Positions 3,894-58,574 of a DNA stretch of 64,000 bases are shown piece by piece. A program made the position numbers and the translations under genes. The notes below the pieces were generated by a model that was given only the letters and a program-made list of their open reading frames with translations, had not been told where the DNA came from and did not search any database. Every line of letters starts with the position of its first letter. Positions within the stretch are counted from its first letter, which is position 1. Source of the DNA: an uncultured Candidatus Saccharibacteria bacterium (GTDB taxonomy: Bacteria; Patescibacteriota; Minisyncoccia; Phycocordibacterales; Phycocordibacteraceae); assembly GCA_964593365.1 (NCBI GenBank), contig CAZQGQ010000001.1, forward strand, positions 178,384-242,383. The letters are read 5' to 3'.

Positions 3894-4145
3894 ATGGATG
3901 CAACCACCTTTATAGGTGTCCTTGGGGCGGGGATTCTCCTTATCGCGTTTATCGCGAACGAGACAGGGAAGCTCAGGGCTGAGACCTTCGCCTATGACCT
4001 CCTGAACCTCGTCGGGGCGGCTCTCTTGGTCTGGTACGCCCTTCTGCTTGAGTCCATCCCGTTCCTCATCCTTGAGGGCATCTGGGCCCTGGTTGCATTC
4101 CGGGACGTCTTCACGAAGCTTGCCGTACGGGGAAAAAACGGCTAA
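3894..4145 (+). CDS. small hypothetical membrane protein (2-3 TM)
   Basis: 83-aa hydrophobic ORF between two tRNAs. Confidence 0.4.
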   Translation: MDATTFIGVLGAGILLIAFIANETGKLRAETFAYDLLNLVGAALLVWYALLLESIPFLILEGIWALVAFRDVFTKLAVRGKNG

Positions 4146-4168
4146 AGTGCTCTTTGTTCGAAACGTTT

Positions 4169-4242
4169 GCGGTCGTAGCTCAACTGGTTAGAGCACCCGC
4201 CTGTCACGCGGGAGGTTGCGAGTTCAAGTCTCGTCGACCGCG
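4169..4242 (+). tRNA. tRNA-Asp (GUC)
   Basis: Acceptor gcggtcg/cgaccgc, anticodon stem-loop cccgc-cuGUCac-gcggg, T-arm cgagttcaagtctcg. Confidence 0.85.
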
Positions 4243-4246
4243 CAAA

Positions 4247-4290
4247 GCACAAAGCCACCCGAAAGGGTGGCTTTGTGCGTGTATACTTTT
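4247..4290 (+). terminator. perfect 14-bp hairpin (GCACAAAGCCACCC-gaaa-GGGTGGCTTTGTGC) plus U-tract; copy 1 of a ~45 nt direct repeat
   Basis: Inverted repeat read directly; a near-identical copy lies at 5071-5119. Confidence 0.6.
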
Positions 4291-4332
4291 CACATGCCTC
4301 CAGAAACTGTCTTCGCGCCTCGAAGCTCTGTA

Positions 4333-4986
4333 ATGATGCGAATCAGTATCTTCGTAGCACTGCTACTCACTTTTTTTGTTGGATGTATTGGAACCTACTT
4401 TATCCTCACTTCGCGCACCACGGAGGAGGTATCTATACCAACAAATACTGAAGATGGGCGTGTGTGGGTTACGTATTCGTCCATAGTAACTGCAACAACG
4501 ACCACACATGTCTCGGCAAATGGAGAGCCATACTCAATAGCACATTCTGCAGGCTTTAGTATTGCAGTGCCTGTAAGGGAGGCCTACGAAGCTGCCCTTG
4601 AAAGCTATCCCTTTCAAACCTCAATTGAAGTTCAGGATTCAGCGGTAACTTTCAGGGCTCCTGTAGGAACTACAGATTCCGAGTACAACACCTTTATTGC
4701 CCTATATCTTGAGAGAAATGATACGAGCGACTATACAACTCAGGAAAGTTGCGTTATGTGTCAATCCTATGTGAAGGAAGTAAATACTCAGGGAGTTACG
4801 TACTATCGTTATGGCGAGTATCGACGTGGCTTGAATGCACAATATCAGTTTCCAAACATAGATGATGCGGCCACGACGCTTCAGATAACGATTAATTCGC
4901 ATAAGGACTATACCGACGAAGAGATACTAAGAATTTTAAATAGCGTCAAGAAGATAACAGAGACTCAATCTCTTACTCACGACTAG
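4333..4986 (+). CDS. hypothetical N-anchored/secreted protein encoded in a low-GC cassette
   Basis: The ORF annotated from 4216 overlaps tRNA-Asp, so the start is moved to ATG 4333 (MMRISIFVALLL signal/TM). Composition is visibly AT-richer than the flanks. Confidence 0.5.
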   Translation: MMRISIFVALLLTFFVGCIGTYFILTSRTTEEVSIPTNTEDGRVWVTYSSIVTATTTTHVSANGEPYSIAHSAGFSIAVPVREAYEAALESYPFQTSIEVQDSAVTFRAPVGTTDSEYNTFIALYLERNDTSDYTTQESCVMCQSYVKEVNTQGVTYYRYGEYRRGLNAQYQFPNIDDAATTLQITINSHKDYTDEEILRILNSVKKITETQSLTHD

Positions 4987-5070
4987 TAAATTTCACAATT
5001 AGAGACTCTAGAGATAAGTGTCTCCGTGCTTTACAGCTCTAAATCTTAATTCCAACAACGTCCACTAGCT

Positions 5071-5119
5071 CGCGCAAAGTACAAGGCCATCTGAAAGGGT
5101 GGCTTTGTGCGTTATATAC
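5071..5119 (+). repeat. copy 2 of the ~45 nt direct repeat, with an imperfect hairpin (GGGTGGCTTTGTGC 3' arm conserved)
   Basis: 'cgcgcaaagtacaaggccatctgaaagggtggctttgtgcgttatatac' vs 4241-4283 'cgcaaagcacaaagccacccgaaagggtggctttgtgcgtgtatac'. Confidence 0.6.
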
Positions 5120-5127
5120 TCTCAAGC

Positions 5128-5631
5128 ATGACCACCAACCGTCGAAGCCTCTTTTTTGCTTTGGTTCTTATTGCCGTTGTCGTGCTCGGTATCTGGTATC
5201 TTACGAGCGTAAAGAGCGGAGAAGTGCCTGAAGAGACGTGGACGCATGAATATATTCCCTACCCTCACCCTCAATTCGTTCCGCAGTGGCCAAACGAGTT
5301 CCATAATGGTCTCGTCATATCGCCTCAGTCAGCATCAAGCGTAAAGGCGGACCAAGCGTATCTGGAGAGTCCCGGTTTTATTGTCGTGCATCGCGTAGTT
5401 CGGGATTCTCCTGAAGAAGTGTTAGGCGTAAGTTCGTATCTTGCTAATGGCCTTCATAAGGACGTGCCGCTTAATGCTTCTCTTGAGGCAAACTCAATCT
5501 ATTTCGCTTTTCTCTACGCGGATGACGGAGACAGGGTCTTTGACATTACCAAAGACGCAAGACTTAAGTTCTACGACGCGCCGAACAAGACATACCCTGA
5601 AAACCGGGTCGCTCAGTTTGAGACCCTATAA
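5128..5631 (+). CDS. hypothetical N-anchored protein
   Basis: Start moved to ATG 5128 (MTTNRRSLFFALVLIAVVVL TM helix); no known domain. Confidence 0.45.
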   Translation: MTTNRRSLFFALVLIAVVVLGIWYLTSVKSGEVPEETWTHEYIPYPHPQFVPQWPNEFHNGLVISPQSASSVKADQAYLESPGFIVVHRVVRDSPEEVLGVSSYLANGLHKDVPLNASLEANSIYFAFLYADDGDRVFDITKDARLKFYDAPNKTYPENRVAQFETL

Positions 5632-5634
5632 AGA

Positions 5635-6102
5635 TTAGGATGAGGTGCGGTTACTCACGAGAATAAACACGATTGCCAAGACCACGCCAAGAAGGCAGCC
5701 TGCGGCTACCTGAAGTGGCGTATGGACGCCAAGATCGATACGACTCAAACAGATGGCAATCGCTGCAATCGCGCAGGCGCCATAGATTACATGCCGTAGG
5801 GGTTTCTGCATATTCCGTGCGAGGTAGCAAAGCGCAAGCGCAAGGAATACAGATCCGGATGCATGTCCGCTCGGGAACGCATAGCCGGCGGCTTCAATAA
5901 GCGCGTCGTTTGGACGAGGGATACGGAGGGTTTCCTTCAGAATTTGCGTCGAGAGCATGAGACCGAGTGCGCTCATTGCGAAGCAAAACGCCCGTAGCGG
6001 ATTTCGTTTCGATATAAGCCATATAACAATGAGCGCTACAGCGACCAGAAAGCCTTCGGTGCTCGCGATCTTCGTGAAGAGAAATAGGTAGAGAGAATCC
6101 AT
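5635..6102 (-). CDS. PAP2-family phosphatase (phosphatidic acid / undecaprenyl-diphosphate phosphatase-like)
   Basis: PAP2 motifs 'FPSGHAS' and 'SRIDLGVHTPLQV' (SRxxxxxHxxxD) in a multi-TM protein. Confidence 0.8.
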   Translation of the reverse strand: MDSLYLFLFTKIASTEGFLVAVALIVIWLISKRNPLRAFCFAMSALGLMLSTQILKETLRIPRPNDALIEAAGYAFPSGHASGSVFLALALCYLARNMQKPLRHVIYGACAIAAIAICLSRIDLGVHTPLQVAAGCLLGVVLAIVFILVSNRTSS

Positions 6103-8666: not shown

Positions 8667-8742
8667 GCCATCGTAGCTCAGTTGGTAGAGCATCTCACTC
8701 GTAACGAGAAGGTCGCCGGTTCAATCCCGGCCGATGGCTCCA
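8667..8742 (+). tRNA. tRNA-Thr (CGU), CCA encoded
   Basis: Acceptor gccatcg/cgatggc, anticodon loop cuCGUaa, T-arm gccggttcaatcccggc, 3' CCA. Confidence 0.75.
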
Positions 8743-10020: not shown

Positions 10021-10836
10021 ATGACTCGCCCTGAAATGCCGTCTTCTGTAGAAACAGATCTTTCTGCGATTGAGAGCAAGGACTTCGGTACCTATTGGTA
10101 CTTGGTCCAGAAGTTCTATCACGAGAAGTTCTTCAACTCAGACTATCTGGGAAGCCTTATTGCGTATCTCGATAAACTACAGCCAGCTAGGGTCCTTGAT
10201 GCTTCCTGTGGCATTGGGTATCCAGCTATTGAACTGGCTCAGCATGGTTTCAATATCACCTGCAGTGACGGCGACGAATCGCTTCTCCGGGTATTTGAAA
10301 AGCGATTGAGAGAGAGCGATGTTGCGATACCCATCCATCACGCTCGTTGGGCAGAGCTCCCAGAAAAAATAGATGGAACGTTTCCGATTGTCCTGTGTCT
10401 TGATAGTTCGATAACGTATGCAAACTCATGGGGAAGTGAAGGAGAAATAAATCTGCCTCAGACTCGGGAAGAGATACGTAAATCCCTTCAGGGTTTCTAC
10501 GACATGCTCGAACCTGGGGGCAAAGCCGTAATAGGCCTTGGTGAGTACGCCTTTACCGATGATCGGGTAGAGGGAAAGATCGTCGATCTAGGCACCCAAG
10601 CGATAGGAGGCCAGACCGTTCAGCTTGTCTGGAAGCTTGAGTTTGACTATGAACAGAAGAAGAAAACCTGGCACTCAGTCTTCACTACTAACGGTAGAGA
10701 ATATACGCGGACATTCTATAGCTACATGCTCATGGCAGACGAGCTTGAGGAGCTATTACGAGAGGTTGGATTCACCGCTATAGAAACTGAGCCAACTCCG
10801 GGCGGGTACGACAGAAACGTTATCGCAACAAAATAG
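10021..10836 (+). CDS. class I SAM-dependent methyltransferase, glycine/sarcosine N-methyltransferase-like
   Basis: 'RVLDASCGIGYPAIELAQHGFNITCSDGDESLLRVFEKR' parallels GNMT '[40 protein letters not shown]'; downstream 'LCLDSS..GGKAVIG' also parallels GNMT. Confidence 0.6.
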   Translation: MTRPEMPSSVETDLSAIESKDFGTYWYLVQKFYHEKFFNSDYLGSLIAYLDKLQPARVLDASCGIGYPAIELAQHGFNITCSDGDESLLRVFEKRLRESDVAIPIHHARWAELPEKIDGTFPIVLCLDSSITYANSWGSEGEINLPQTREEIRKSLQGFYDMLEPGGKAVIGLGEYAFTDDRVEGKIVDLGTQAIGGQTVQLVWKLEFDYEQKKKTWHSVFTTNGREYTRTFYSYMLMADELEELLREVGFTAIETEPTPGGYDRNVIATK

Positions 10837-10840
10837 ACAT

Positions 10841-10866
10841 CGGTTCAATCCCGTCGATGGCTCCCG
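10841..10866 (+). repeat. direct repeat of the 3' end (T-arm plus acceptor) of tRNA-Thr(CGU); putative attR-like duplication
   Basis: 'cggttcaatcccgtcgatggctccc' vs tRNA 3' end 'cggttcaatcccggccgatggctcca' (8716-8742); 24/26 identity. Confidence 0.6.
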
Positions 10867-17646: not shown

Positions 17647-17658
17647 CAGTCATGAATA

Positions 17659-17726
17659 CCCTGTCTGGTGACCTAGACAGGTAACAGTCCGAAACGACCC
17701 GTCTAATGACCTAGACGGGTCGTTTC
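17659..17726 (+). repeat. two tandem hairpins sharing the loop core GACCTAGAC (7-bp stem and 15-bp perfect stem) between tRNA-Gln and the island
   Basis: cCTGTCTggtGACCTAGACAGg and GAAACGACCCGTCTAatGACCTAGACGGGTCGTTTC. Confidence 0.55.
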
Positions 17727-17851
17727 GTTCTATCTACACAAACTACGAAGATAGGTGCTCTTAACGCTATGGGTCAATAGAGATCCATTTATATGGGATC
17801 TTTATTGTGATAGAATTACTGGAAGGTTATATTCAGTAGCCTAACAATTTT

Positions 17852-19390
17852 ATGAGTAAAAAAGACAACAAGAAGACACTCAAAGTCCCTGCACTTAGGG
17901 TGAATCAGTGGCTAAAGAAGTGGGACGGTATTAAGTGGGATATCGGACAACACAGAAGGAAGCCGGAGAACTGTTTCTATGTTTTTTCGCTGTCAGCAAA
18001 GCAACTCAGAGCTCTTTCAGGTGTTTATAGGCGAGATACGCAAACGCGTACTGGTCTGCAAAGAACCCATGAGCCAAAGCGATCCGAGAATATCGGTAAG
18101 TACGTTAAATATGGATACCCTTGGTCTGACTTAACAGACGATCAGAGAAAGGAAGGGCGTTTTGATCATTTACAGAAACCGGGATGGCTACCTACAGCAA
18201 TTGTGGTAAACATTCTTACAAAGGACGATTCACGCAATGGGAAAAAAGTTGCAGCTGAAGATTTGATCAAAATCATAAGTGACACACAAAAAAATACTCA
18301 AATAGAGCTTCCAAAATCATTTACAAATTCTGAAACATGGAAAGTAAAACAGGAACGCCCCATCGAGATTATTGATGGGCAACATCGCTTGTTGGCTTTT
18401 GACGATGACGAGATATCCGGTGATTACGAATTACCAGTAGTTGCATTTTATGGACTGGATATTAGTTGGCAGGCATATCTATTTTGGACGATCAACATTA
18501 AGCCAAAACGAATCAACCCAAGTTTAGCTTACGATCTTTATCCATTACTGCGTACAGAGGAATGGTTGGAGCAGTTTGAAGGGCATAAAGTTTACAGAGA
18601 AGTTAGGGCACAGGAACTTGTTGAAATGCTTTGGTCAGAAGAGAAGAGTGCATGGTATCGAAGAATTAATATGTTGGGAGAAAGTGGCGGCCCTTCAGTT
18701 ACTCAGGCTGCGTGGATTCGAGCTCTTACTAAAACTTTTATCAAATCATTTGAGGGAGGAAAGAAAAATAAAATTGGAGGATTGTTTGGTGCGCCGGTTG
18801 GAAAAGACAAAATTGCAATTCCTTGGAATCGCGCTCAGCAAGGAGCGTTGTTGATCCATTTATGGAATGAGATAAGTGAGGCCGTTGAAAATTCCAAAGA
18901 AAGATGGGTAAAGGAGCTTCGTGATAAAAAGAAACAAGAATACAAGCGAGGGATTGATGGAGATGTTGCTTTATTCGGGCCGTATTCGTTGTTGACTAAT
19001 GACCAAGGTGTCTCCGTGGTTCTAAATATTAGCAATGACCTCCTCTTTCTGGAGAAAGACAAGCTTAACCTACAGGAGTGGGAATTTGATGCCGAGGGTA
19101 GCGTTACCGAAGCGCTCAGTTCACTTACAAAAAAACAAAAAAAGTTATCAGAATACGTATCTCGTCTCGCTAAAGCGATAGCAACTTTTGACTGGAGAAC
19201 ATCTGCAGCTGTGGGCTTAACGGAAAATGAACGGACGCAGAAACTTTCTTATAGAGGTGGTAGTGGGTATAAGGAATTTCGCAGGCAACTTCTTAAGCAT
19301 CTTATCAATGATGCTCATTTTGGTGACTCTGCAAAGGAGATCTATCAAGCTCTAGGATATGCCAAGGAAGACACCAAAAAAATCAAATAA
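17852..19390 (+). CDS. DGQHR-domain protein (DndB-like, ParB/sulfiredoxin fold)
   Basis: Signature 'EIIDGQHRLLAF'; low-GC gene, first in a four-gene overlapping operon. Confidence 0.65.
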   Translation: MSKKDNKKTLKVPALRVNQWLKKWDGIKWDIGQHRRKPENCFYVFSLSAKQLRALSGVYRRDTQTRTGLQRTHEPKRSENIGKYVKYGYPWSDLTDDQRKEGRFDHLQKPGWLPTAIVVNILTKDDSRNGKKVAAEDLIKIISDTQKNTQIELPKSFTNSETWKVKQERPIEIIDGQHRLLAFDDDEISGDYELPVVAFYGLDISWQAYLFWTINIKPKRINPSLAYDLYPLLRTEEWLEQFEGHKVYREVRAQELVEMLWSEEKSAWYRRINMLGESGGPSVTQAAWIRALTKTFIKSFEGGKKNKIGGLFGAPVGKDKIAIPWNRAQQGALLIHLWNEISEAVENSKERWVKELRDKKKQEYKRGIDGDVALFGPYSLLTNDQGVSVVLNISNDLLFLEKDKLNLQEWEFDAEGSVTEALSSLTKKQKKLSEYVSRLAKAIATFDWRTSAAVGLTENERTQKLSYRGGSGYKEFRRQLLKHLINDAHFGDSAKEIYQALGYAKEDTKKIK

Positions 19391-20717
19391 CACCTTTCCT
19401 TCGAATGCATATTCAAGGGAAGCGACCCAGGCAACCTTCAATAGACTGAAGGCTTATCTTGATGATGATCGCTGGCTTGCGCGAGGGAATCGATATGCGA
19501 TCAAATGTGTTGATCGTATTCGAAAGGACTATAAGCAAGACTCTAGAACGAAAGTAATTACAAACGATATAGTCGAGAAGCATCTTGCTGAATATATAGC
19601 TGCTTCTGCGCCTGTCCACGCAATAGATGGGTGGGGTTTTTTAGGGAAAGCAATCGCAAGTCACTCAATTGGAGATATTGAGGCATGTAAGCATTTTGCT
19701 TATTATGCGCAGCTTCGAGCTGTCATGTCACTGATGGCCAGTGAAGGTATTGGAGTTTTTGATAACAAGCATTTTGCAATAAAGAATGCGGATCGGAGAA
19801 CTTCGTCTGTGACAGCCCCGAAAAAGAGTTCCACGCATGATTTTGCAGGTTCGCAGTTTAGATCATGGGCAAAATCAAAGAGTTCCGGAGCTCTGCTTGA
19901 GAAGATAATTCGACCCAGAGGTATCTCTCTTGAGGAATGGTTTAAGGAAATTTCACCAACAAAAGTTAGTTGGCTGGCTCAAGACTGGCTTGATCATTGG
20001 GGATATGACTTAAATAAATTTAAGAAAGATCAAGATGCTCGAAACAGAGCAAGTTATAGACCAACAATTCTAGACCGTGACTTAAATTATCGAAACGCTT
20101 CAGTTGTAAGTGACTCGATTGAACTTGTGGATGCGATCTGGAGAATGTGTTCACCTGATAGCGTCGGTGGTTTCAGCCTGGATTTGCAGCTAATGAGAGT
20201 TAGTTGGGATGAATATTCGCGTATGAGAGGAACGACTCCGACTCGAGCTGATAGAGAAAAGGTTTTAAGTGACTTAGGTATCTTGCAACCAGAATTAGGT
20301 AATCTAGTCGACTTTTTTGAACGTACAACTTCATCCGTAGATTCAATCATCTTAACTGAAGCACGTAAGAAAGGTTCACCCGAAGATGTCGATTATCACT
20401 CGCAAATGCTATGTCGTGCCACAATTCTGCTACGTCTTGCCACTGGGGCATCAGCTTCTCTTATAGCAAAGGCTAAGTTCGATAAGGATGATTTGAAGTT
20501 TTGGTCAGATTTTGTTGGTGAGAACTCGGGCTTGTGGGAGTCAGGTGCTCCAAACCCTATTACAGATATGTGGAACGAAGTTGAAGAAGCTTTGCATGAC
20601 CTCAACGTTAAAGCACCCTCAATTAATAATCATTATAAATGGCGTTCTGAACTCGCAAATGAAGTACTGACCTTGTCTGGGTGTGAGCGTATTGGTTTAG
20701 CCCGATTTTGCCTATGA
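19359..20717 (+). CDS. hypothetical protein, no recognisable domain (island component 2)
   Basis: 452 aa; 32-nt overlap with the upstream gene and 10-nt overlap with the downstream one. Only a weak P-loop-like 'GWGFLGKA'. Confidence 0.5.
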   Translation: MPRKTPKKSNNTFPSNAYSREATQATFNRLKAYLDDDRWLARGNRYAIKCVDRIRKDYKQDSRTKVITNDIVEKHLAEYIAASAPVHAIDGWGFLGKAIASHSIGDIEACKHFAYYAQLRAVMSLMASEGIGVFDNKHFAIKNADRRTSSVTAPKKSSTHDFAGSQFRSWAKSKSSGALLEKIIRPRGISLEEWFKEISPTKVSWLAQDWLDHWGYDLNKFKKDQDARNRASYRPTILDRDLNYRNASVVSDSIELVDAIWRMCSPDSVGGFSLDLQLMRVSWDEYSRMRGTTPTRADREKVLSDLGILQPELGNLVDFFERTTSSVDSIILTEARKKGSPEDVDYHSQMLCRATILLRLATGASASLIAKAKFDKDDLKFWSDFVGENSGLWESGAPNPITDMWNEVEEALHDLNVKAPSINNHYKWRSELANEVLTLSGCERIGLARFCL

Positions 20718-21961
20718 AATACATGGGCTCAAAACGTTATATGTTAAATAACGGTCTTGGTACTTTGATACGAGATCAGTTACCTCATGCTAACAGGGTG
20801 ATAGATCCATTTTGTGGAGCAGGATCAGTAATTCAATTTGCAGCAAAGAATTCTGATAAGGAGATAATTGCCGGCGATCTTCAGCAGTATGCAATTGTAC
20901 TCGCAAGGGCTGTTATTGAACGTACAAAGCCAGTTGATGTGCCTATGTTACAGACTAGTTGGTTACTTAAGGCGGAAGAACAACTGTCGAGATCTAAGCT
21001 TTTTCTGCAAGCAAAGAAGAACGACATTAATTATTCCCAAAATGTAGAAGAGTGGGTAAAAAAATCTCGCCAACTATGTGAGATTCCTTCAAAGATTGGA
21101 CCTGTATGGGGTGCTTACGGTGGTCATTACTTCAGTCCTAAGCAAGCGCTTATTATTGATTATCTTATTAAGTGTTTGCCTGAGAAGACCACTGACCGGA
21201 ATGTCTGTTTAGCTGCCCTGATAACTGCAGCTTCAAGATGTGCTGCAGCTCCGGGACATACAGCCCAGCCTTTTCAACCTACTGAAGGTGCTTCTAAGTT
21301 TATAAAGATCTCTTGGAACATGGATGTGCTCAAGTCTTGTTTAAATGCTTTGACTGAGATCGCACCGCTACATGCCAAAACAAATGGTGCTGCATATGTT
21401 GGAAGCGCTGAGAAGCTCACACAAAAAATGCAAAAAGGAGATCTGGTAATAATTGACCCTCCTTATTCAGGGGTACAATATAGTCGTTTTTATCATGTAT
21501 TAGAGACCATCGCGCGTGGCAAATGCGGAAAGGTAGAAGGGGTAGGGCGTTATCCTGTATTGTCAGAGCGCCCTCAGTCGTCTTTTAGTAATGTTGGTCA
21601 ATCTGTCGAAGCTCTCGATATTCTTCTAAAAAAGTTATCAGAGAGAGAAGTTGTCGTAATTTTTACTTTCCCTAAGGGCGATTGCAGTAACGGTTTATCC
21701 GGAAAGGTGATTGCAGACAGTGCAAAAAAGTATTTCACAATAGATAAAAAGAGCAGAACACACCATCATGTAGTGAAGGGTAAGTTCAGCACTTTAGGTG
21801 GAAATAATAAACTTAAACTAAAAAACAACGAGGTTAAAAGATCTCGAGTGACCTCTGAGGAGCTTATCCTCCTTCTTAAGCCGAGAGTATCAAAGTCAGT
21901 ATCACGTAGCAAACAAAAACAAAAGATAAAAACACGTAAGAGCTATGCACAATATCGGTAA
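20708..21961 (+). CDS. D12-class (Dam-like) N6-adenine DNA methyltransferase with a Lys-rich C-terminal tail
   Basis: 'YMGSKRYML' (cf. KWAGGKR), 'DPFCGAGSV' (FxGxG) and catalytic 'IIDPPYSG' (DPPY). Confidence 0.7.
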   Translation: MPMKYMGSKRYMLNNGLGTLIRDQLPHANRVIDPFCGAGSVIQFAAKNSDKEIIAGDLQQYAIVLARAVIERTKPVDVPMLQTSWLLKAEEQLSRSKLFLQAKKNDINYSQNVEEWVKKSRQLCEIPSKIGPVWGAYGGHYFSPKQALIIDYLIKCLPEKTTDRNVCLAALITAASRCAAAPGHTAQPFQPTEGASKFIKISWNMDVLKSCLNALTEIAPLHAKTNGAAYVGSAEKLTQKMQKGDLVIIDPPYSGVQYSRFYHVLETIARGKCGKVEGVGRYPVLSERPQSSFSNVGQSVEALDILLKKLSEREVVVIFTFPKGDCSNGLSGKVIADSAKKYFTIDKKSRTHHHVVKGKFSTLGGNNKLKLKNNEVKRSRVTSEELILLLKPRVSKSVSRSKQKQKIKTRKSYAQYR

Positions 21962-22823
21962 AAAGATAACTATATATCTCGTTACAGGACTTCCAAAAGG
22001 AGTTCGAGAGGCCCGTATCGATCAGTGGAGTGGTAAAGCAGTTTGCGGTCCTCGAAACGCATTAAAAGAGATAATCGCTTTGCCTGAAGTTGAGTCGGGC
22101 GCATGTATATATTTTCTTATAGGCATTCCAGATGACGGAGGGTTGCTTGATGTATATGTTGGAGAAGCAGATGGGTTTAAAGAAAGAATTAAACACCATG
22201 ACTACAAGAAAGAGTGGTGGCAAGACGTTGTAGTATTTGTCAGTCAAGATAAATCACTTACAAAAACGGGAATTCAGTATCTTGAGAGTGTTTGTATCGA
22301 GCGTCTAAAGCAGATTGGCAAATGTAATCTTAAGAATGGTAATAGTCCCTCTCTACCTACAACGCCTAAGGAAGACTTAAGTGGTCTCGAACTGTTTTAT
22401 ATGAATCTTGCAACAATTATGCCCTTGCTTGGTTATGATATCTTTGTTCAAAACGAAAAATCACCTGGTAAGAATACGGTAGAGAGTCCAGTTTTTACGT
22501 GCAAGAAAGGAGTGAATATTGTTGCGGAAGCATATTTACTCGAAGATGGAAAAATGCGTGTTTTAAAAGGGTCAAAAGCGTCAGCAGAAGAAACACCTTC
22601 TTTTCAAAGCCATCCATATAAAAAACTAAAAAATGAGTTAATAAAAATCAATCGCTTGGTACCTCAAGGTGACATTCTTATCTTTTCTGATGATTACGTT
22701 TTTGACAGCTCAAGCGCTGCATCAGCCGTTATACAAGCTCGATCTTCACCGGGACCTATAGAATGGAAACTGAAAAAGGGAGGTAAAACTTTGAGAGAGT
22801 ATCTAAACTCAAAGATTCAATGA
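21945..22823 (+). CDS. GIY-YIG nuclease domain protein with a C-terminal DUF4357-like domain
   Basis: 'ACIYFLIGIPDDGGLLDVYVGEADGFKERIKHH' fits GIY-(10-11 aa)-YIG plus the Arg/Glu pattern; 17-nt overlap with the methyltransferase. Confidence 0.55.
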   Translation: MHNIGKKITIYLVTGLPKGVREARIDQWSGKAVCGPRNALKEIIALPEVESGACIYFLIGIPDDGGLLDVYVGEADGFKERIKHHDYKKEWWQDVVVFVSQDKSLTKTGIQYLESVCIERLKQIGKCNLKNGNSPSLPTTPKEDLSGLELFYMNLATIMPLLGYDIFVQNEKSPGKNTVESPVFTCKKGVNIVAEAYLLEDGKMRVLKGSKASAEETPSFQSHPYKKLKNELIKINRLVPQGDILIFSDDYVFDSSSAASAVIQARSSPGPIEWKLKKGGKTLREYLNSKIQ

Positions 22824-22956
22824 GAGTTATAACTGCAGAAGCCATATTTTAATCTTCTCAGGTATTGAGACACGTCGCTTTAAACACTTCATACAACAGT
22901 ATAAGTTATTGATCTCACGCAATTTTCACGACCCTTTTTGTATCCTTCATAGCGTG

Positions 22957-46484: not shown

Positions 46485-46511
46485 GCTGTCAGCTCGATAT
46501 ATACTGTTTGT

Positions 46512-46940
46512 ATGAAAAAGTTTTACTACCTCGGCACGTTGGTATTTGTTTTTTTGGTTCCTACAGTCGTTGCCGGATTCTTTCTTTCTAACTTTATTTC
46601 CCTTGAAGCACTCGTGCCGTTTGTAATATTAGTCACAATCATAGGAAGTATCTGGGATGTGTGGGCTACTCGTCACGGAAGAAAGGATCGAGTATGGCTT
46701 TGGCAATTTAATCGTAAGAATACGCTTGGTCCGCGATTCCTTGGCTTACCAATTGAAGAGTATTTGTTCTATGTCGTGAGTAGCGTGTACGTAATCTTTA
46801 TGTGGGAAGGACTGAAACTTATGCTCGCAGGAACCGTCTCCCAGGTGTATTGGACTATTGCCGCATTAGCCGGATGGACTCTTGTCTCTTTAGCAGCGCC
46901 ATACATTCTAGCGCCCAAAGGCGATAAGGTACTGAGCTAG
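46512..46940 (+). CDS. lycopene-cyclase-domain membrane protein
   Basis: 'LGLPIEEYLFYVV' within a 4-5 TM protein resembles CrtYcd-type domains; low-GC gene. Confidence 0.4.
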   Translation: MKKFYYLGTLVFVFLVPTVVAGFFLSNFISLEALVPFVILVTIIGSIWDVWATRHGRKDRVWLWQFNRKNTLGPRFLGLPIEEYLFYVVSSVYVIFMWEGLKLMLAGTVSQVYWTIAALAGWTLVSLAAPYILAPKGDKVLS

Positions 46941-46989
46941 AAAATTTCCAACATCGTCCCAGAGAGCCAGCAATGCTAAGCTGGTTTAC

Positions 46990-47532
46990 ATGAAAGAAGG
47001 CCATGTCATTTTCGATTTCGACCTCACGATTTGCTCTCTTGTAACAGACTGGGTTGAATGGCGAAAAGGAGTATGGAAACTTGTTAAAGAATTTGATCCT
47101 TCCTCTAATTACGAAGTAGAACAAATCAGGCATGCAACTCAGAACGATCTCATACATAAGTATGGTCTGGTCTTTAAAGCGCAGCTCGATAAAGCCAATG
47201 AAGAGCTCGAGCTGAAGTATATCGAGGGTTTTCTACCTAACGAAAAAGTAGTGGATTTCATACGAACCACAGATAAGAATCTTTACGTCTGGTCCTCTAA
47301 TTCGCGTGCAACTGTAGTGAAGCATCTGCAAGCTCTTGGCATAGAAGATAAGTTCCAGAAGATAGTGGCGCGAGAGCATGTGCATCTACTCAAGCCATCT
47401 CCTGAAGGCTTTTCCTTAATTTATAGTCCCCACAATATGTTAAAAGAGTACGTCCTCGTTGGCGATAGTGCATCGGATGCGAACGCAGCCTTAAATGCTG
47501 GAATTCGCTTTTTGCAGGTTGATTCCTTCTAA
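46990..47532 (+). CDS. HAD-superfamily hydrolase
   Basis: 'FDFDLT' motif I and 'VGDSASDANAALNAG' motif IV. Confidence 0.65.
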   Translation: MKEGHVIFDFDLTICSLVTDWVEWRKGVWKLVKEFDPSSNYEVEQIRHATQNDLIHKYGLVFKAQLDKANEELELKYIEGFLPNEKVVDFIRTTDKNLYVWSSNSRATVVKHLQALGIEDKFQKIVAREHVHLLKPSPEGFSLIYSPHNMLKEYVLVGDSASDANAALNAGIRFLQVDSF

Positions 47533-47598
47533 CCAGGCTCCAACATCGTCCAGCCAGCCAACTTGAGGCAGGCTCAGTGTCTAAGGTCGATGGTCTCG

Positions 47599-48699
47599 TC
47601 ATTCAGCTACTTCTGTCGGTGGAGCAGGAACTCTCGCTATTGCTTCCTCAAGAGCGTTATTAATCTGTTCAAGGATAGTCACAGCAGAACCAGAGCTTCC
47701 TATCGCATCCTCGCCTCGTATGGCAAAGGTCGATTTAGCCACCTTGAAATGAGTGAGTCTGAATTTGCGCAGGAATAGAAGACACTTTCGTAAAGATTGT
47801 GCCGATGCATTCTCTCCACCATGTCCATGCTGTAGCAGCTTTGATAGCGCAGAAGGCTTACCTAAAAGCTGTGCTGCAAACTCTCTGTATACGCGGGGGC
47901 CATTAGCAGCGCTGTGGGTAATATGCGAGTTGTACCACTCCTGGTTGGAATCTGAGCTCCAGAGAAGTAGGTCAACGAGATATATAGGGACTTGCGCACC
48001 TCCAGGGCCAAAGTATTCCTTACCTTCGAACTTGATAGGATCTGAATAGGGTCGGATGCTGTTCATGAATACGTCAGGCGGAATATTGCGCGCCTCTCGC
48101 ATGCCCTCGACCATTCCTCCAAGTCCGGTAACGATTTTCTCGCAAAGAGAGACGTACTCTGCCGAGTTCTCAGGCGTGCGGCTGAGCTGTTCAGCACTCT
48201 CGATCGCTAGGAATAACGAATCCATACCTATCTGGAAACCACGAAGAAGCGCACGTTCATGCTCGCTACTTGAGAAGGTACGCAGGCGCTCACCAGGCGG
48301 ATTTCTAAAGATGTAGGTATATACGGAATCACGCGGTGATTCTCCAGTTAGTTCTATGAGCCGGCGAGCTGTATCCCGTATTTCCGGATGGGCTTCAATA
48401 TCGACACCGCGTACGCCAAGAGCAGTTGTTAGGAAGCAGAAATCGCGATGCACAGCGAAGAGCTGTTCTCGGGTATGAGGACTCGCGAGGAATGCGTCAG
48501 TGCGCTTAGAAAGGGATATCGCTTCTTGCAGGAGCTCCTCCATATTTCTTGACTCATTGAGCTCCCGGAAGCGGGTTTTGAAAAACTCGTCTGCCTCAAG
48601 CGGGTCATATTCTCGAACACGCTCATCAAAATTCACCCATTCGTTGATTTGCTCAACGTTGTTTTTGGGTTTATTGGAGCCTGCTTCAGGATCAATCAT
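47599..48699 (-). CDS. hypothetical protein (366 aa)
   Basis: Low-GC; no confident family match (faint resemblance to PrnB/IDO-like helical proteins). Confidence 0.4.
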   Translation of the reverse strand: MIDPEAGSNKPKNNVEQINEWVNFDERVREYDPLEADEFFKTRFRELNESRNMEELLQEAISLSKRTDAFLASPHTREQLFAVHRDFCFLTTALGVRGVDIEAHPEIRDTARRLIELTGESPRDSVYTYIFRNPPGERLRTFSSSEHERALLRGFQIGMDSLFLAIESAEQLSRTPENSAEYVSLCEKIVTGLGGMVEGMREARNIPPDVFMNSIRPYSDPIKFEGKEYFGPGGAQVPIYLVDLLLWSSDSNQEWYNSHITHSAANGPRVYREFAAQLLGKPSALSKLLQHGHGGENASAQSLRKCLLFLRKFRLTHFKVAKSTFAIRGEDAIGSSGSAVTILEQINNALEEAIARVPAPPTEVAE

Positions 48700-48812
48700 T
48701 GGGGCAATAATACCATTTCAAAATAAAGGACAAACCTCGTACATTGGCCACCTAGACAGAGCCTGGCATAGATTGCATTTGGGTTCCACCATCGTCCCAG
48801 ACAGCCAGCAAG

Positions 48813-49250
48813 GTGCTGTATTCTAAATACATGGATATTTTTGAAGAAGTACGAAAGCAGAACTTCCCATCAGGGCACTACATAGTCGTTGGAAGCGGCA
48901 TTATGGTTGTAAAAGGAATTAGAGATACACAGGATCTAGATATTGTAGTTTCAGAAGCATTATTTGAGCAGTGTAAGGCTGAAGGCTGGGAAACCCATGA
49001 ATGGACCAAGGCTCATATTCCCGGTAAACCCTGGCTTAGAAAAGGAAACGTGGAGCTCTACATTGAGATCAGTAGAAAAACGGGCGGCATACCTCTCGAA
49101 GGTCTTCTAGCCGAAGCAGAAGTAATTCAAGGAATACCGTTCATTACCTTAGAAAGACTCATAGATTTTAAAAAAGAGTACGGTCGTCAGAAAGATTTTG
49201 AGGATATAGAAATGATCGAGCAGTATTTAAGAAATACTCAAAGTTCTTAG
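48813..49250 (+). CDS. hypothetical protein
   Basis: GTG start at 48813 (ATG alternative at 48831); unknown function. Confidence 0.4.
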   Translation: MLYSKYMDIFEEVRKQNFPSGHYIVVGSGIMVVKGIRDTQDLDIVVSEALFEQCKAEGWETHEWTKAHIPGKPWLRKGNVELYIEISRKTGGIPLEGLLAEAEVIQGIPFITLERLIDFKKEYGRQKDFEDIEMIEQYLRNTQSS

Positions 49251-49298
49251 AACAGCTCCAGCATCGCCTCAGCCACCCGGCGGGGGTATAATTTCTAT

Positions 49299-49706
49299 AT
49301 GCAAAAGGTTGTTAGGAAGGTCACTTTCGCAGACGTAGTAGTGGCTATTCTGTTTCTCGTAAGCCCGGTGGCTGGTATTTATTTCAGAACCCTGAGAGCG
49401 ATATATTTTGACTACTACACGGGGCTTATAAATGACCCTGGCCATCGATGGGTAGCAACCTTCAATAAGATTCTCGTCATTCTCGTCGCTGCTGGCACTG
49501 CAATTTTATACAATCTCAACCGTGACAATCCTTCAAACTGGATCTCCTATTTCAGCGACGACGTGTTCCTTAACATGGCTTTTGCTCAGACTGCTGGCTG
49601 GCCAAGCTTCTTCATCCTCTATGCGCTTTCGGCGATGTTGTATTTCTATGGGAAGTATAGAGACGTTCTTATCAGGAAAATAAACGAGAATGCCAAAGTC
49701 TGGTAG
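49299..49706 (+). CDS. hypothetical membrane protein (4 TM)
   Basis: Hydrophobic 135-aa ORF. Confidence 0.4.
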   Translation: MQKVVRKVTFADVVVAILFLVSPVAGIYFRTLRAIYFDYYTGLINDPGHRWVATFNKILVILVAAGTAILYNLNRDNPSNWISYFSDDVFLNMAFAQTAGWPSFFILYALSAMLYFYGKYRDVLIRKINENAKVW

Positions 49707-49755
49707 TAGATGTAAACGTCGTTCCCGAGAGACAACAGCCTGTTAGTATGACCAC

Positions 49756-50223
49756 ATGGTTTCCCTTTGCTCGATGAAGAATATTCTAATCACAGCCGCA
49801 GCACTCATTCTCGTCGGAGGCGCTGCTTACTTCCTTACGCAGGAAGAGTCGCAGGTTCCGCCTACAGACATGCCTGCACCCGAGCAGACTCGCGGTGCGC
49901 CAGTATTCAAGTGGTCTTTTGAAGAGGGTGAAGAGGAAGGCATTCAGCAGACGAGCATCAGCCTCACCGCGACCTACGAGAATGGTACATCTGACACCAA
50001 GCTCATTGCCGCGATAGAAGGAGGCTGCAACAGCTACGAGAATGCGGATAGCGACGTATACGAGCACTCTACAATGATCATCTGCTACTACGCTGGGCTT
50101 GGCCGGTACTTCAAAGTGATTGAGGACGGGGAAGGATATGTTGTCCAGCAGCGGATGTTCGAGGAAGCATCACCTGATTACAATCCGCCACAGCGTCCCT
50201 ACGAAAATCTCACGCGATTCTAG
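49756..50223 (+). CDS. secreted hypothetical protein
   Basis: Signal peptide/anchor then a Cys-containing domain. Confidence 0.4.
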   Translation: MVSLCSMKNILITAAALILVGGAAYFLTQEESQVPPTDMPAPEQTRGAPVFKWSFEEGEEEGIQQTSISLTATYENGTSDTKLIAAIEGGCNSYENADSDVYEHSTMIICYYAGLGRYFKVIEDGEGYVVQQRMFEEASPDYNPPQRPYENLTRF

Positions 50224-56639: not shown

Positions 56640-58574
56640 TTATACTCCGATCAAGACCGGGATAACCATCGGTGCCTTGTTGGTTCGAGAGAACAGATAG
56701 CCTGCCATGGTGTCGGTAAGCTGGTTCTTCACGAAATCAAGGTCAACCGGGTTCATTCCCTCAGTCGAGTCCTCGACTGTCTTCTTGATGAGAAGGCGGG
56801 CTTGGTTCAGAAGATCCTGAGACTCTCGCAGATAGATGAATCCGCGGGAGATGATATCAGGGGACTTCCGCAGTTTGCCGGTCTTTAGGTGCACGGTCGC
56901 GATGATGACGAACATGCCGTCCTTGGCGAGCATCTGGCGGTCGCGGATCACGACCTCCTGCATGTCGCCGATGGCGAATCCGTCGACAATCAACGGAGCG
57001 TTTGGCACCTTATCCTTGTGGATCATGAGGCGCTCGCCGTCCACGATGTCGATCACCATGCCGTTATCGGCAAGGACGATGTTCTCGCGAGGGAAGCCTG
57101 CCTGCTCGACTGCCTTTGCGTGTGAGCTTGTCATAGAGTAGTAGCCGTACGCTGGCATGAAGAACTTCGCGTTCACCTGCTTGTTGATCCAGACCAACTC
57201 TCCGGTTTGTCCGTGTCCTGTGGAGTGCACGTCAGAGGAGCGGTAATGGATCAGGGTGACCTTGTTGCGGAAGAGGTTATCCTTCAAGCGCTGCACGGCG
57301 ATCTCGTTTCCAGGAATAACCGATGACGAGAGCACGATAGTATCTCGCTCGTTAAGCGTGATGCTCTTGTGCTGCTTGGTTGCGATGCGCATAAGCGCTG
57401 CGAATTCCTCACCCTGCGCGCCTGTTGCCAAGACGACGATCTTGTCTGGCGGATAATCGCCTATCTCGGTCGCGGGGACAACGGTTCCCTTGGCGATCTT
57501 GAGGAGGCCGGTCTTCTCTGCGATCTCAAGGTTCGTCTTGATCGAACGGCCTTCCATAACCACCTTCTTCCCGAGTCGCTCGGCGATCTGGATGATATGG
57601 ATCATGCGCTCGAACTGGGACGCGAAGGTGCCGATAATGAGGCGTCCTTTCACCGTCTTCACGATCTCCTCCAAGGTCTCATGGACCTTTCGTTCGGGGA
57701 TCGAGAAGCCGTCCTTCTCGGCGTTTGTTGAGTCTGCAATAAAGAACAGGTTGTTGTCCTTTCCGATCTCGCCCCACTTCTTGGCTTCTGCTTCAGTGGC
57801 GACGCCATCGACATGGTCGAGCTTCAAGTCTCCTGTCGCAACGACGTTGCCGTAGGGCGTCTCGATCGAGATACCCATCGAGTCAGGGATAGAGTGCGTG
57901 ACTGGGAAGAACTTCACTCGTGTTCCTCCAATGGTGTGCGTTGACCCAGGCTCAACCACCACGAGGTTTGGAGCGGGCATCTCAGGATATTCTTCCTGAC
58001 GCTTCTGGATCATCACGGCAGAAAGGTTCTGCGTGTAGATAGGGGGGTTCCCGAATCGGTTCATGAGGAACGGGATGCCGCCGATGTGGTCGAGGTGGCC
58101 GTGGGTAATGAAGACCGCGCGTACGCGTTCTTGGTTCTTCTCAAGGTAACTGGTGTTAGGGAGCATGTAGTCGACGCCTGGAGCCGTGTCTTCGGAGACG
58201 AACTGGAAGCCCACGTCGCAGACGAAGATATCGTTGCCGCTTTCAACGGCAAACATGTTGCGTCCCACTTCCTCGACGCCGCCAAGAGGCACGATGCGAA
58301 CGACGTTTGGTGCGACTGGGTCAGGGAAGTAATCAGCTACTTTTCGGACTGTTGGGGCCGAGGGGGATCGGCGCATGCCGCCGCGGCGCATGTCGCGCTG
58401 CTTTCCTCCGGATCGTCCGCCTGCTGCGCGAGGTCCTCCGGTTCGAGGTCCGCGAGACGGGCCCTGGGGCCCTGCTCCGCGATTGCCGCGGAAGGGAGGG
58501 CGTCCACCTGCCTGATCGCCGCCTTGGCGGGAATCTGGAGCGGGTGCTGGGGCCGGTGCTGGTGCAAAGTTCAT
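56640..58574 (-). CDS. rnj: ribonuclease J (metallo-beta-lactamase/beta-CASP) with ~90-aa N-terminal RG-rich extension
   Basis: 'FITHGHLDHIGG' HxHxDH motif, beta-CASP and C-terminal domains; N-terminus 'PAPAPAPAP..RGNRGAGPQG'. Confidence 0.85.
   Translation of the reverse strand: MNFAPAPAPAPAPDSRQGGDQAGGRPPFRGNRGAGPQGPSRGPRTGGPRAAGGRSGGKQRDMRRGGMRRSPSAPTVRKVADYFPDPVAPNVVRIVPLGGVEEVGRNMFAVESGNDIFVCDVGFQFVSEDTAPGVDYMLPNTSYLEKNQERVRAVFITHGHLDHIGGIPFLMNRFGNPPIYTQNLSAVMIQKRQEEYPEMPAPNLVVVEPGSTHTIGGTRVKFFPVTHSIPDSMGISIETPYGNVVATGDLKLDHVDGVATEAEAKKWGEIGKDNNLFFIADSTNAEKDGFSIPERKVHETLEEIVKTVKGRLIIGTFASQFERMIHIIQIAERLGKKVVMEGRSIKTNLEIAEKTGLLKIAKGTVVPATEIGDYPPDKIVVLATGAQGEEFAALMRIATKQHKSITLNERDTIVLSSSVIPGNEIAVQRLKDNLFRNKVTLIHYRSSDVHSTGHGQTGELVWINKQVNAKFFMPAYGYYSMTSSHAKAVEQAGFPRENIVLADNGMVIDIVDGERLMIHKDKVPNAPLIVDGFAIGDMQEVVIRDRQMLAKDGMFVIIATVHLKTGKLRKSPDIISRGFIYLRESQDLLNQARLLIKKTVEDSTEGMNPVDLDFVKNQLTDTMAGYLFSRTNKAPMVIPVLIGV

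Follow-up and report, generated by a model that had tools for sequence, protein, structure and literature searches.

We analyzed a 64,000-nt stretch of contig CAZQGQ010000001.1 from an uncultured Candidatus Saccharibacteria bacterium. This stretch is called the window below, and all coordinates are positions in it. The subject of our analysis is an 832-bp interval at the 3' end of a tRNA-Asp gene, in which a single open reading frame (ORF1) lies between two copies of a hairpin-containing sequence. Along the + strand, the locus consists of tRNA-Asp(GTC) at 4169-4242, a first copy of a junction module (M1) at 4239-4296, ORF1 at 4294-4986, an element that we call psi at 5040-5076, a second copy of the module (M2) at 5071-5130, and a gene for a DUF7282 protein at 5128-5631. 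The tRNA gene has no encoded CCA and matches Rfam family RF00005 at 71.3 bits (ARAGORN places its end at 4243); no known RNA family other than tRNA exceeded the Rfam threshold at the locus. The DUF7282 protein is 167 amino acids (aa) long, with an N-terminal membrane anchor and a match to Pfam PF23951 (E = 2.9e-11). A first-pass annotation, made from the sequence, had noticed the duplicated hairpin and attributed it to insertion of a cassette at the tRNA 3' end. The underlying observation is confirmed: the junction sequence does recur almost exactly on the far side of one ORF, and the comparisons described below uncovered empty and differently filled versions of the same site.

The direct repeat begins inside tRNA-Asp, at its 3' end (position 4239), and pairs 4239-4280 with 5071-5112, with 38 of 42 nt identical and the copies 832 nt apart. 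When three small gaps are allowed, the similarity reaches approximately 4302/5137, past a TATACT box, an ATG and a few further bases. M1 comprises the tRNA terminal CGCG followed by CA and AAG, a hairpin at 4247-4278, TATACT at 4282-4287, and the ATG at 4294; M2 comprises CGCGCA and AAG, a hairpin at 5079-5110, TATACT at 5115-5120, and the ATG at 5128. RNA folding bore out the perfect 14-bp hairpin described for the first copy (4247-4260 paired with 4265-4278 around a GAAA loop, -31.5 kcal/mol, z = -6.3). The M2 hairpin (5079-5092 with 5097-5110) keeps 14 of 14 pairs, four of them as G-U (-21.9 kcal/mol, z = -4.5). The four stem differences between M1 and M2 are all transitions, and all fall in the 5' arm. 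Further copies of the hairpin repeat, a search suggested by the first-pass annotation, were sought within the 64 kb, and the 15-mer common to both hairpins was found on the + strand at these two places only. The securely homologous part of the repeat consists of CGCGCAAAG, the hairpin, and GCGT. Judged by its sequence, the repeat goes beyond a duplicated target. It combines the tRNA terminal CGCG and CA with a terminator-like hairpin, a putative -10 box, and a start codon.

The right-hand portion of each module matches a layout that is common in this genome. In 31 of the 68 long ORFs of the window, a TANNNT hexamer ends 6-9 nt 5' of the first ATG, compared to approximately one or two ORFs at each other position. 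M1 and M2 both show this arrangement, with TATACT 6-7 nt before the ATG, and a promoter scan reported a promoter-like site at 5091-5120 in M2. This distribution suggests mostly leaderless transcription, and public gene calls probably misplace some starts, such as that of ORF1 at 4333. The frame's first ATG lies at 4294, 6 nt past the TATACT box, and is used by one public gene call (230 aa). Because M1 ends in the genome's -10/ATG arrangement, 4294 is most likely the true ORF1 start; the ORF at 4333-4986 given in the first-pass annotation (217 aa) is real in its frame, with its start placed downstream of the first ATG. A terminator scan made no call at either hairpin, where the T-run is weak (UUUGUGCGU, partly within the stem). 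We found nothing specific to Saccharibacteria in the literature on leaderless transcription or tRNA islands. Across the whole window the -10-like hexamers often read TGGTAnnnT, and Shine-Dalgarno-like sequences looked rare in the upstream regions inspected.

ORF1 encodes a protein with an N-terminal transmembrane anchor and an ectodomain of approximately 180 aa, and no Pfam family matched it, in agreement with the initial description of an N-anchored protein of unknown function. The compositional shift suspected at first reading is real, though moderate: the guanine-plus-cytosine (GC) content of ORF1 is 0.439 compared to a gene mean of 0.521 (standard deviation [sd] 0.050), and GC at third codon positions is 0.403 compared to 0.582 (sd 0.103). 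These values lie approximately 1.6-1.7 sd below the mean, and ORF1 has the seventh lowest GC among 64 ORFs. An AlphaFold2 model made without an alignment contains a helix at residues 2-21, with the rest at low confidence, and was unusable as a whole (predicted local distance difference test score of 39). Among 5.8e9 clustered proteins ORF1 matched itself alone. A HMMER search of 1.84 billion representatives recovered its sole credible relative, a 223-aa protein (P0007) that is 27% identical over 191 collinear residues and has the same architecture. In P0007, too, a long N-terminal tail, rich in Pro and Ala, precedes the membrane anchor, in line with the ORF1 start at 4294. P0007 is encoded by a Parcubacteria metagenome-assembled genome just after fusA, in an unrelated context with no tRNA nearby. 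The idea that ORF1 is a pure orphan was rejected on the basis of this homologue, which also implies that ORF1 is not a newly born gene; as far as these alignments indicate, ORF1 genuinely belongs to a very small family of membrane-anchored proteins that evolves fast. A second candidate homologue, P0008, was set aside since the match rests on short repeated segments. No ORF1 relatives were found in IMG/VR. We also discarded a viral origin for the cassette, as IMG/VR holds neither a relative of ORF1 nor the psi pattern described below and its matches to the hairpin core are unrelated terminators.

Between ORF1 and M2 lies psi, whose core, AATTCCAACAACGTCCACTAGCTCGCGCA, occupies 5048-5076 and ends in CGCGCA, like the tRNA-Asp end plus CA. 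The 'TTCCAACAACGTCC' motif that the first-pass annotation had pointed out at 5050 exists and belongs to psi; it recurs in the window at 46946, 47538, and 48784. A psi profile matched the window at 5040-5077 (nhmmer), and copies of psi are also present in the relatives L009, L008 (two copies), L013/L014, and L017. The profile recovered a copy in L008 that was absent from its training set. From TTCCAAC, which is T-loop-like, to CGCGCA, psi spans 29 nt in six copies from five lineages, compared to 25 nt in its tRNA counterpart. Psi copies are 69-83% identical to one another (59-67% for the more diverged second copy in L008) and 55-68% identical to tRNA-Asp 3' ends. Their likeness to tRNA-Asp is positional, with a T-loop-like segment, then ..CGT.., then CGCGCA. 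No conserved secondary structure was found in psi; RNAalifold merely lengthens the base of the hairpin by pairing CGCGCA with UGUGCG. The psi pattern is absent from IMG/VR.

The presence or absence of the gene at this tRNA in related genomes, a comparison that the first-pass annotation had called for, proved informative. The loci of relatives were reached by tracing DUF7282 orthologues, which are 55-68% identical, to their contigs; a scan of a genome collection with DUF7282 returned only the already known locus. In these relatives the site of insertion has the DUF7282 gene as its resident right-hand neighbor. To the left, the locus is anchored by a conserved series of tRNA-Met, a CBU_0592-family gene, and tRNA-Asp. 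In the window, the CBU_0592-family gene (3894-4145, + strand) encodes a small membrane protein of 83 aa, assigned to PF26604 in gene calls, and its orthologues are 58% identical in L010 and 79% identical in L017. L010 carries an empty site, where the hairpin comes immediately after a CBU_0592-like gene and tRNA-Asp and is itself followed by GTTATATACT, 7 nt, and the DUF7282 start codon (ATG). The other relatives are filled differently. In L009, the tRNA-Asp end is followed by a different hairpin, a gene of 110 aa, psi, the module, and the DUF7282 gene. L008 contains an array in which gene 1 (DKNYY-like), psi, a degenerate hairpin, TATATACT, and the ATG of gene 2 (LTD/pilin-like) precede a further psi, the module, and the DUF7282 gene. 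In L014, approximately 210 nt without a gene separate tRNA-Asp from the module and the DUF7282 gene, beyond which lie a further psi, another hairpin, TATATACT, and the next gene; the 210-nt insert has on both sides an exact 15-nt repeat of the genome's own tRNA 3' end. A sister species (L016/L017) has 2.85 kb of other genes after tRNA-Asp, then psi and a hairpin. The window and L017 are syntenic through the CBU_0592-family gene and approximately 80% identical in nucleotide sequence up to ...CGCGCAAA at the tRNA-Asp end, with no similarity beyond it.

L008 and L009 encode an identical DUF7282 protein and carry unrelated cargo upstream of it. In a comparison of L008 (1440-1600) with L009 (400-560), the sequences are approximately 99% identical from GTGCGTTATATACT rightwards and approximately 75% identical over the hairpin and psi, and the cargo has no similarity. 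From these alignments, the sharp boundary at the 3' foot of the hairpin is read as the replacement, at the level of strains, of a whole cassette along with the psi and hairpin that belong to it. In one relative (L011, at approximately 820-835, and L012), the DUF7282 frame contains a TGA at a conserved Trp codon (FVPQ*PN compared to FVPQWPN) and is called as a 96-aa fragment, which could represent a pseudogene, a sequencing error, or stop-codon recoding.

The junction modules recur with both tRNA-Asp and psi on their left. A double-hairpin form that follows a real tRNA-Asp in L017 is approximately 85% identical over 58 nt to the form that follows psi in L014 and L013 (the L017/L014 alignment score is 78, compared to a shuffle maximum of 38). 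The single-hairpin form stands after the tRNA in the window (M1) and in L010, and after psi in the window (M2), L009, and L008. Since the same modules follow both, either the tRNA-Asp end or psi can be the left partner, joined to the module at CGCGCA. M2-type modules are also found 5' of the DUF7282 gene in L008, L009, L010, and L013/L014, and by this comparison the module is native to the DUF7282 gene. The first-pass annotation had taken the duplicated junction as the mark of insertion, a view that needs correcting: the junction is a putatively functional module that belongs to the resident gene in relatives, and its two copies in the window are 82% identical.

These observations allow two explanations that involve no import of a cassette to be weighed. 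One is that the DUF7282 module was duplicated in place, by slippage or template switching at the hairpin, and that ORF1 is a fast-evolving or newborn local gene. The ATG of ORF1 is indeed supplied by the first copy of the repeat, ORF1 is almost an orphan, and the N-terminal anchors of ORF1 and the DUF7282 protein align weakly (15 of 65 identities). However, a collinear homologue with the same architecture occurs at an unrelated locus in a distant genome of the Candidate Phyla Radiation (CPR), relatives carry different and unrelated genes at the same spot, the GC content of ORF1 is lower than that of its neighbors, and a simple duplication leaves psi, between ORF1 and the second copy, unexplained. 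ORF1 and the DUF7282 protein also have no detectable homology (BLASTP E = 2.7), a result on which we had rejected tandem gene duplication as well. We therefore consider a purely local origin improbable.

The other is coincidence, in which two independent, look-alike intrinsic terminators of a generic kind happen to surround an ordinary resident gene. The 22-nt hairpin core AAGCCAyCyrAAAGGGTGGCTT is found in 20 unrelated IMG/VR phage contigs, where a T-run usually comes next and where, in two cases, the core stands directly after a tRNA. The first-pass annotation had named a common, recurring terminator as a finding that would count against it, and this holds in part, for the core; within the window, however, the hairpin is confined to its two sites. 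The GNRA-loop stem appears, from these sequences, to be a recurrent and probably convergent post-tRNA terminator. However, a generic core leaves the extended repeat, the empty site, and psi unexplained. The identity between the copies continues beyond the stem, with CGCGCAAAG before it and GCGT after it, the overall match is 38 of 42, and the motif lies nowhere else in the 64 kb; given also that an empty-site allele exists, we regard coincidence as the least credible explanation of those considered. As a separate observation on the core, in two of the unrelated viral contigs (L031 and L034) it reads AAGCCATCCGAAAGGGTGGCTT and adjoins the tRNA 3' end (...GGTTCGATTCCTAGCAGGTTCACCA).

Our favored interpretation, to which we give an even chance of being correct, is that the 832-bp interval is a one-gene cassette placed by site-specific recombination at the junction of the tRNA-Asp end and the hairpin, with a recombinase acting in trans. 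According to this interpretation, the ancestral order, in a Saccharibacteria-like host with a genome of approximately 0.65 Mb, would have been tRNA-Asp, then CA, a terminator-like hairpin, a -10 box, 6-7 nt, and an ATG, then the DUF7282 gene. The cassette would have comprised its own module (M1), ORF1, which would be of foreign origin, and the 29-nt psi ending in the tRNA-like CGCGCA. Joining may have taken place between the tRNA-Asp-end/hairpin junction, as an attB-like site, and the psi/hairpin junction of the incoming and probably circular DNA, as an attP-like site, catalyzed by a recombinase whose gene would lie outside the cassette or would have been lost with another part of the element. 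Such repeated recombination at the tRNA-Asp-end/hairpin junction fits what the sequences show directly: the anatomy of the locus, the empty and differently filled alleles, the recurrence of psi, and the exchange of tRNA-Asp for psi to the left of one module. The product would be the order seen today: tRNA, module, gene, psi, module, resident gene. In this arrangement, the first hairpin would end the tRNA-Asp transcript and the second the ORF1 transcript, and from each TATACT a leaderless mRNA would begin directly at the start codon, that of ORF1 or that of the DUF7282 gene. The inserted gene would thus bring its own expression signals and leave those of its neighbor intact.

Several findings weigh against this interpretation. 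The part of tRNA-Asp within the repeat is its last 4 nt only (CGCG, 4239-4242), so that the inclusion of the tRNA end proposed at first reading, as 4-5 nt, holds and amounts to exactly 4 nt; in tRNA-targeting integrative elements, the flanking repeats typically hold 15-60 nt of the tRNA 3' segment. Pfam searches of the cassette, the cargo genes of relatives, and approximately 50 window ORFs revealed no integrase or recombinase. With only 4 nt of tRNA duplicated and no integrase found, the word "site-specific" is one that we infer; of the insertion first proposed, the cassette insertion itself is supported by the empty site in L010, the other cargo in relatives, and the synteny break with L017. 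Alignment of psi with the T-arm and acceptor of tRNA-Asp was not above chance in shuffle tests and Rfam gave no match, and the notion that psi is a decayed copy of the tRNA-Asp 3' end was dropped for lack of significance in those tests and kept as a positional analogy only. M1 and M2 are 82% identical over the approximately 60-nt module, the same value as each copy has with its L009 orthologue. Two copies as diverged as orthologues from different species do not represent a fresh target duplication; their divergence would be expected if the cassette arrived with a module of its own, or if homologous recombination imported it from a relative. The shared TATACT and its fixed spacing from the ATG could reflect convergence on the genome's common promoter form, because TATACT is a common -10 variant here. 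The generic nature of the hairpin core, described above, counts on the same side. In addition, more than 20 public contigs of the same strain from mat metagenomes are 100% identical over 4101-5700, and no presence/absence polymorphism, empty allele, excision product, or circle junction was found among them. The source is a clonal population, on a contig of approximately 650 kb. Short public contigs end inside tRNAs, probably because the sister species has the same tRNA sequence. Finally, the comparative set is small, consisting of five lineages represented mostly by short contigs.

Alternatively, DNA from related cells may have been recombined into the locus by RecA, with tRNA-Asp together with the module or the DUF7282 gene serving as homology anchors, in which case the repeats would serve as portable homology and would not be attachment (att) sites. 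This could have occurred by allelic replacement or by a Campbell-type single crossover of a circularized fragment across the 60-100-nt module. In Neisseria, "minimal mobile elements" are exchanged through flanking homology with no dedicated recombinase. Several features of the locus are consistent with such a route: the cassette, the window ORFs screened, and the cargo of relatives yielded no recombinase gene, L008 and L009 look like alleles that were swapped with a breakpoint at the promoter, synteny with L017 stops at a highly conserved tRNA, and M1 and M2 have diverged like orthologues, as expected if M1 was imported with its gene from a relative. Type IV pilin-like proteins and a prepilin peptidase, which may be linked to DNA uptake, are encoded upstream of the window. 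However, allelic replacement alone yields neither duplicated junctions nor copies of psi, and the length of psi is constant in four different contexts. A module of approximately 60 nt at 82% identity would be a poor RecA substrate, and both the exact 15-nt tRNA-end repeat in L014 and a 43-nt copy of a tRNA-Thr half elsewhere in the window, described below, are signatures of site-specific integration. On balance, we consider exchange by RecA unlikely, though the most probable of the alternatives to the site-specific cassette.

A cassette in an integron-like sense, with the gene, psi, and hairpin forming an attC-like site captured at an attI-like tRNA-Asp end, is a further alternative. Like integron cassettes and clusters of attC sites lacking integron-integrases (CALINs), the loci described here contain unrelated single genes stacked at one site with a recurring, hairpin-containing junction between them, both in L008 and in an array at 46.5-50.2 kb of the window. 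TTCCAAC and GTTATAT also each agree at 6 of 7 positions with the integron core-site consensus (RYYYAAC and GTTRRRY), which we counted in favor of this explanation. However, attC architecture is missing: an imperfect palindrome of the attC type, in which R''/L'' pair with L'/R', is not seen, and the hairpin is a simple, asymmetrically placed perfect stem. TTCCAAC is separated from the stem by 23 nt that have no pairing partner, and only 4 of its 7 positions are complementary to GTTATAT. Unlike integron cassettes, which share a common promoter (Pc), every unit here has its own predicted promoter, the capture site is a tRNA end, and no integron integrase (IntI) was found in the window. These differences make a true integron relationship very improbable.

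Comparison with other known systems indicates that the class of event is ordinary, a small islet at a tRNA hotspot, and that the anatomy is unusual, with a terminator-like hairpin and a predicted leaderless promoter next to a conserved tRNA-end-like motif found at cassette boundaries in several genomes. Elements without their own recombination genes that are flanked by att sites are known as cis-mobilizable elements (CIMEs) in the ICESt1/ICESt3 family of Streptococcus thermophilus. As in CIMEs, short cargo here lies between att-like direct repeats at a conserved site with no integrase inside, and any mobility would need an enzyme in trans. Unlike CIMEs, the repeats would double as expression signals, and no cognate integrase-bearing element was seen among the loci fetched. 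The hairpins resemble intrinsic terminators in having a GC-rich stem and a GNRA loop, in standing after a tRNA and after a gene, and in sharing their core with terminator-like hairpins of phage contigs; they differ in their weak U-tract and in that the whole unit is duplicated with its flanks. The locus is also unlike IS200/IS605 or REP/RAYT elements: ORF1 is membrane-anchored and has no Pfam family, and inspection of its sequence revealed no HUH motif, as a Y1 (HUH) transposase between subterminal hairpins would have.

The closest parallels are the genomic islands and tycheposons of Prochlorococcus, which arise by repeated integration at tRNA genes and in which partial tRNAs scattered through the islands are traces of older integrations (10.1101/2020.12.28.424599). 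As in those islands, the insertions here are anchored at the 3' side of a tRNA, the cargo varies among close relatives, tRNA-end-like repeats mark the distal junctions, and the older a junction, the farther it has been displaced from the tRNA, all within a small, streamlined genome that has few classical mobile elements. Unlike in those islands, no integrase-bearing element was seen here and each unit is one gene, with sizes of 0.2-2.9 kb. Another difference is the repeat, holding 4 nt of tRNA and then a terminator hairpin and a predicted leaderless promoter, and psi is a conserved 29-nt family of its own and not a plain partial tRNA.

The acquisition and exchange of genes are poorly understood in CPR bacteria (Patescibacteria), which have tiny genomes, few recognizable mobile elements, and many strain-specific surface proteins. 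The locus described here offers a concrete and testable model, a tRNA-Asp hotspot with empty and alternatively filled alleles and a recurring junction. If this junction is a true recombination site, it could be used to search the phylum for cassette arrays and to find the enzyme. Under the more conservative interpretation too, the arrangement would allow an inserted gene to be expressed and insulated with its neighbors undisturbed. The locus also corrects the likely start of ORF1. We speculate that Saccharibacteria, and perhaps other CPR bacteria, possess an undescribed gene-capture system with integron-like logic and a different anatomy, a proposal that we put forward tentatively and as rather unlikely. 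In such a system, single genes would be stacked at tRNA 3' ends, and each would bring a junction in which psi, as a mimic of the tRNA end, adjoins a terminator hairpin and a start codon with its leaderless promoter. A gene would then be insulated and active as soon as it was captured, and the recombinase would act in trans. The array at 46.5-50.2 kb would be a counterpart anchored on a junction of the tRNA-Thr type.

Other tRNA-linked features of the window bear on how commonly such sites have been used. The 3' half of tRNA-Thr(CGT), 43 nt from the anticodon loop to the 3' end, is repeated 2.1 kb downstream of the tRNA (8699-8741 and 10823-10864). The last 25 nt match at 23 positions, and none of 2000 shuffles reached the score of the alignment. 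This half-copy indicates that tRNA-directed integration has happened in this genome. The repeat brackets three genes of below-average GC content that encode a TrmB-like regulator, an S-adenosylmethionine decarboxylase, and a methyltransferase, and from its sequence it looks like the classical att scar of an integrase-less islet.

The region at 46485-50223 contains an array of small, mostly low-GC genes, four of which have a GC content of 0.40-0.45. They encode a membrane protein with a lycopene-cyclase domain, a haloacid dehalogenase (HAD) hydrolase, a PrnB-like protein (on the opposite strand), and three proteins of unknown function. The genes are separated by copies of a 28-nt motif family, TTCCAACATCGTCCCAGAGAGCCAGCAA, at 46946, 47538, 48784, 49256, and 49711. 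Four of the five copies lie 5-6 nt past a stop codon, and four of five end 15-19 nt short of the ATG that follows. The motif agrees with the psi motif at 5050 in its first 14 nt, and at 49711 it has significant similarity to the tRNA-Thr scar junction at 10850 (2 of 2000 shuffles). Given this organization, the region may be a second cassette array.

Two further tRNA calls in the window deserve mention. The 104-nt "tRNA-Phe" that ARAGORN reported at 58179-58282 (- strand) falls within the coding region of RNase J (56643-58574, - strand) and is probably a false positive, not an intron-bearing tRNA. Directly 3' of tRNA-Gln(CTG), a 5-kb island of low GC content (0.37-0.43) extends from 17648 to 22830, with a perfect 16-bp hairpin at 17690-17727; neither a flanking direct repeat nor an integrase was found for it. 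The island encodes a DndB-like DGQHR protein, a 452-aa protein of unknown function, a D12-class N6-adenine DNA methyltransferase, and a DUF4357 protein, and by its gene content it looks like a defence or modification island.

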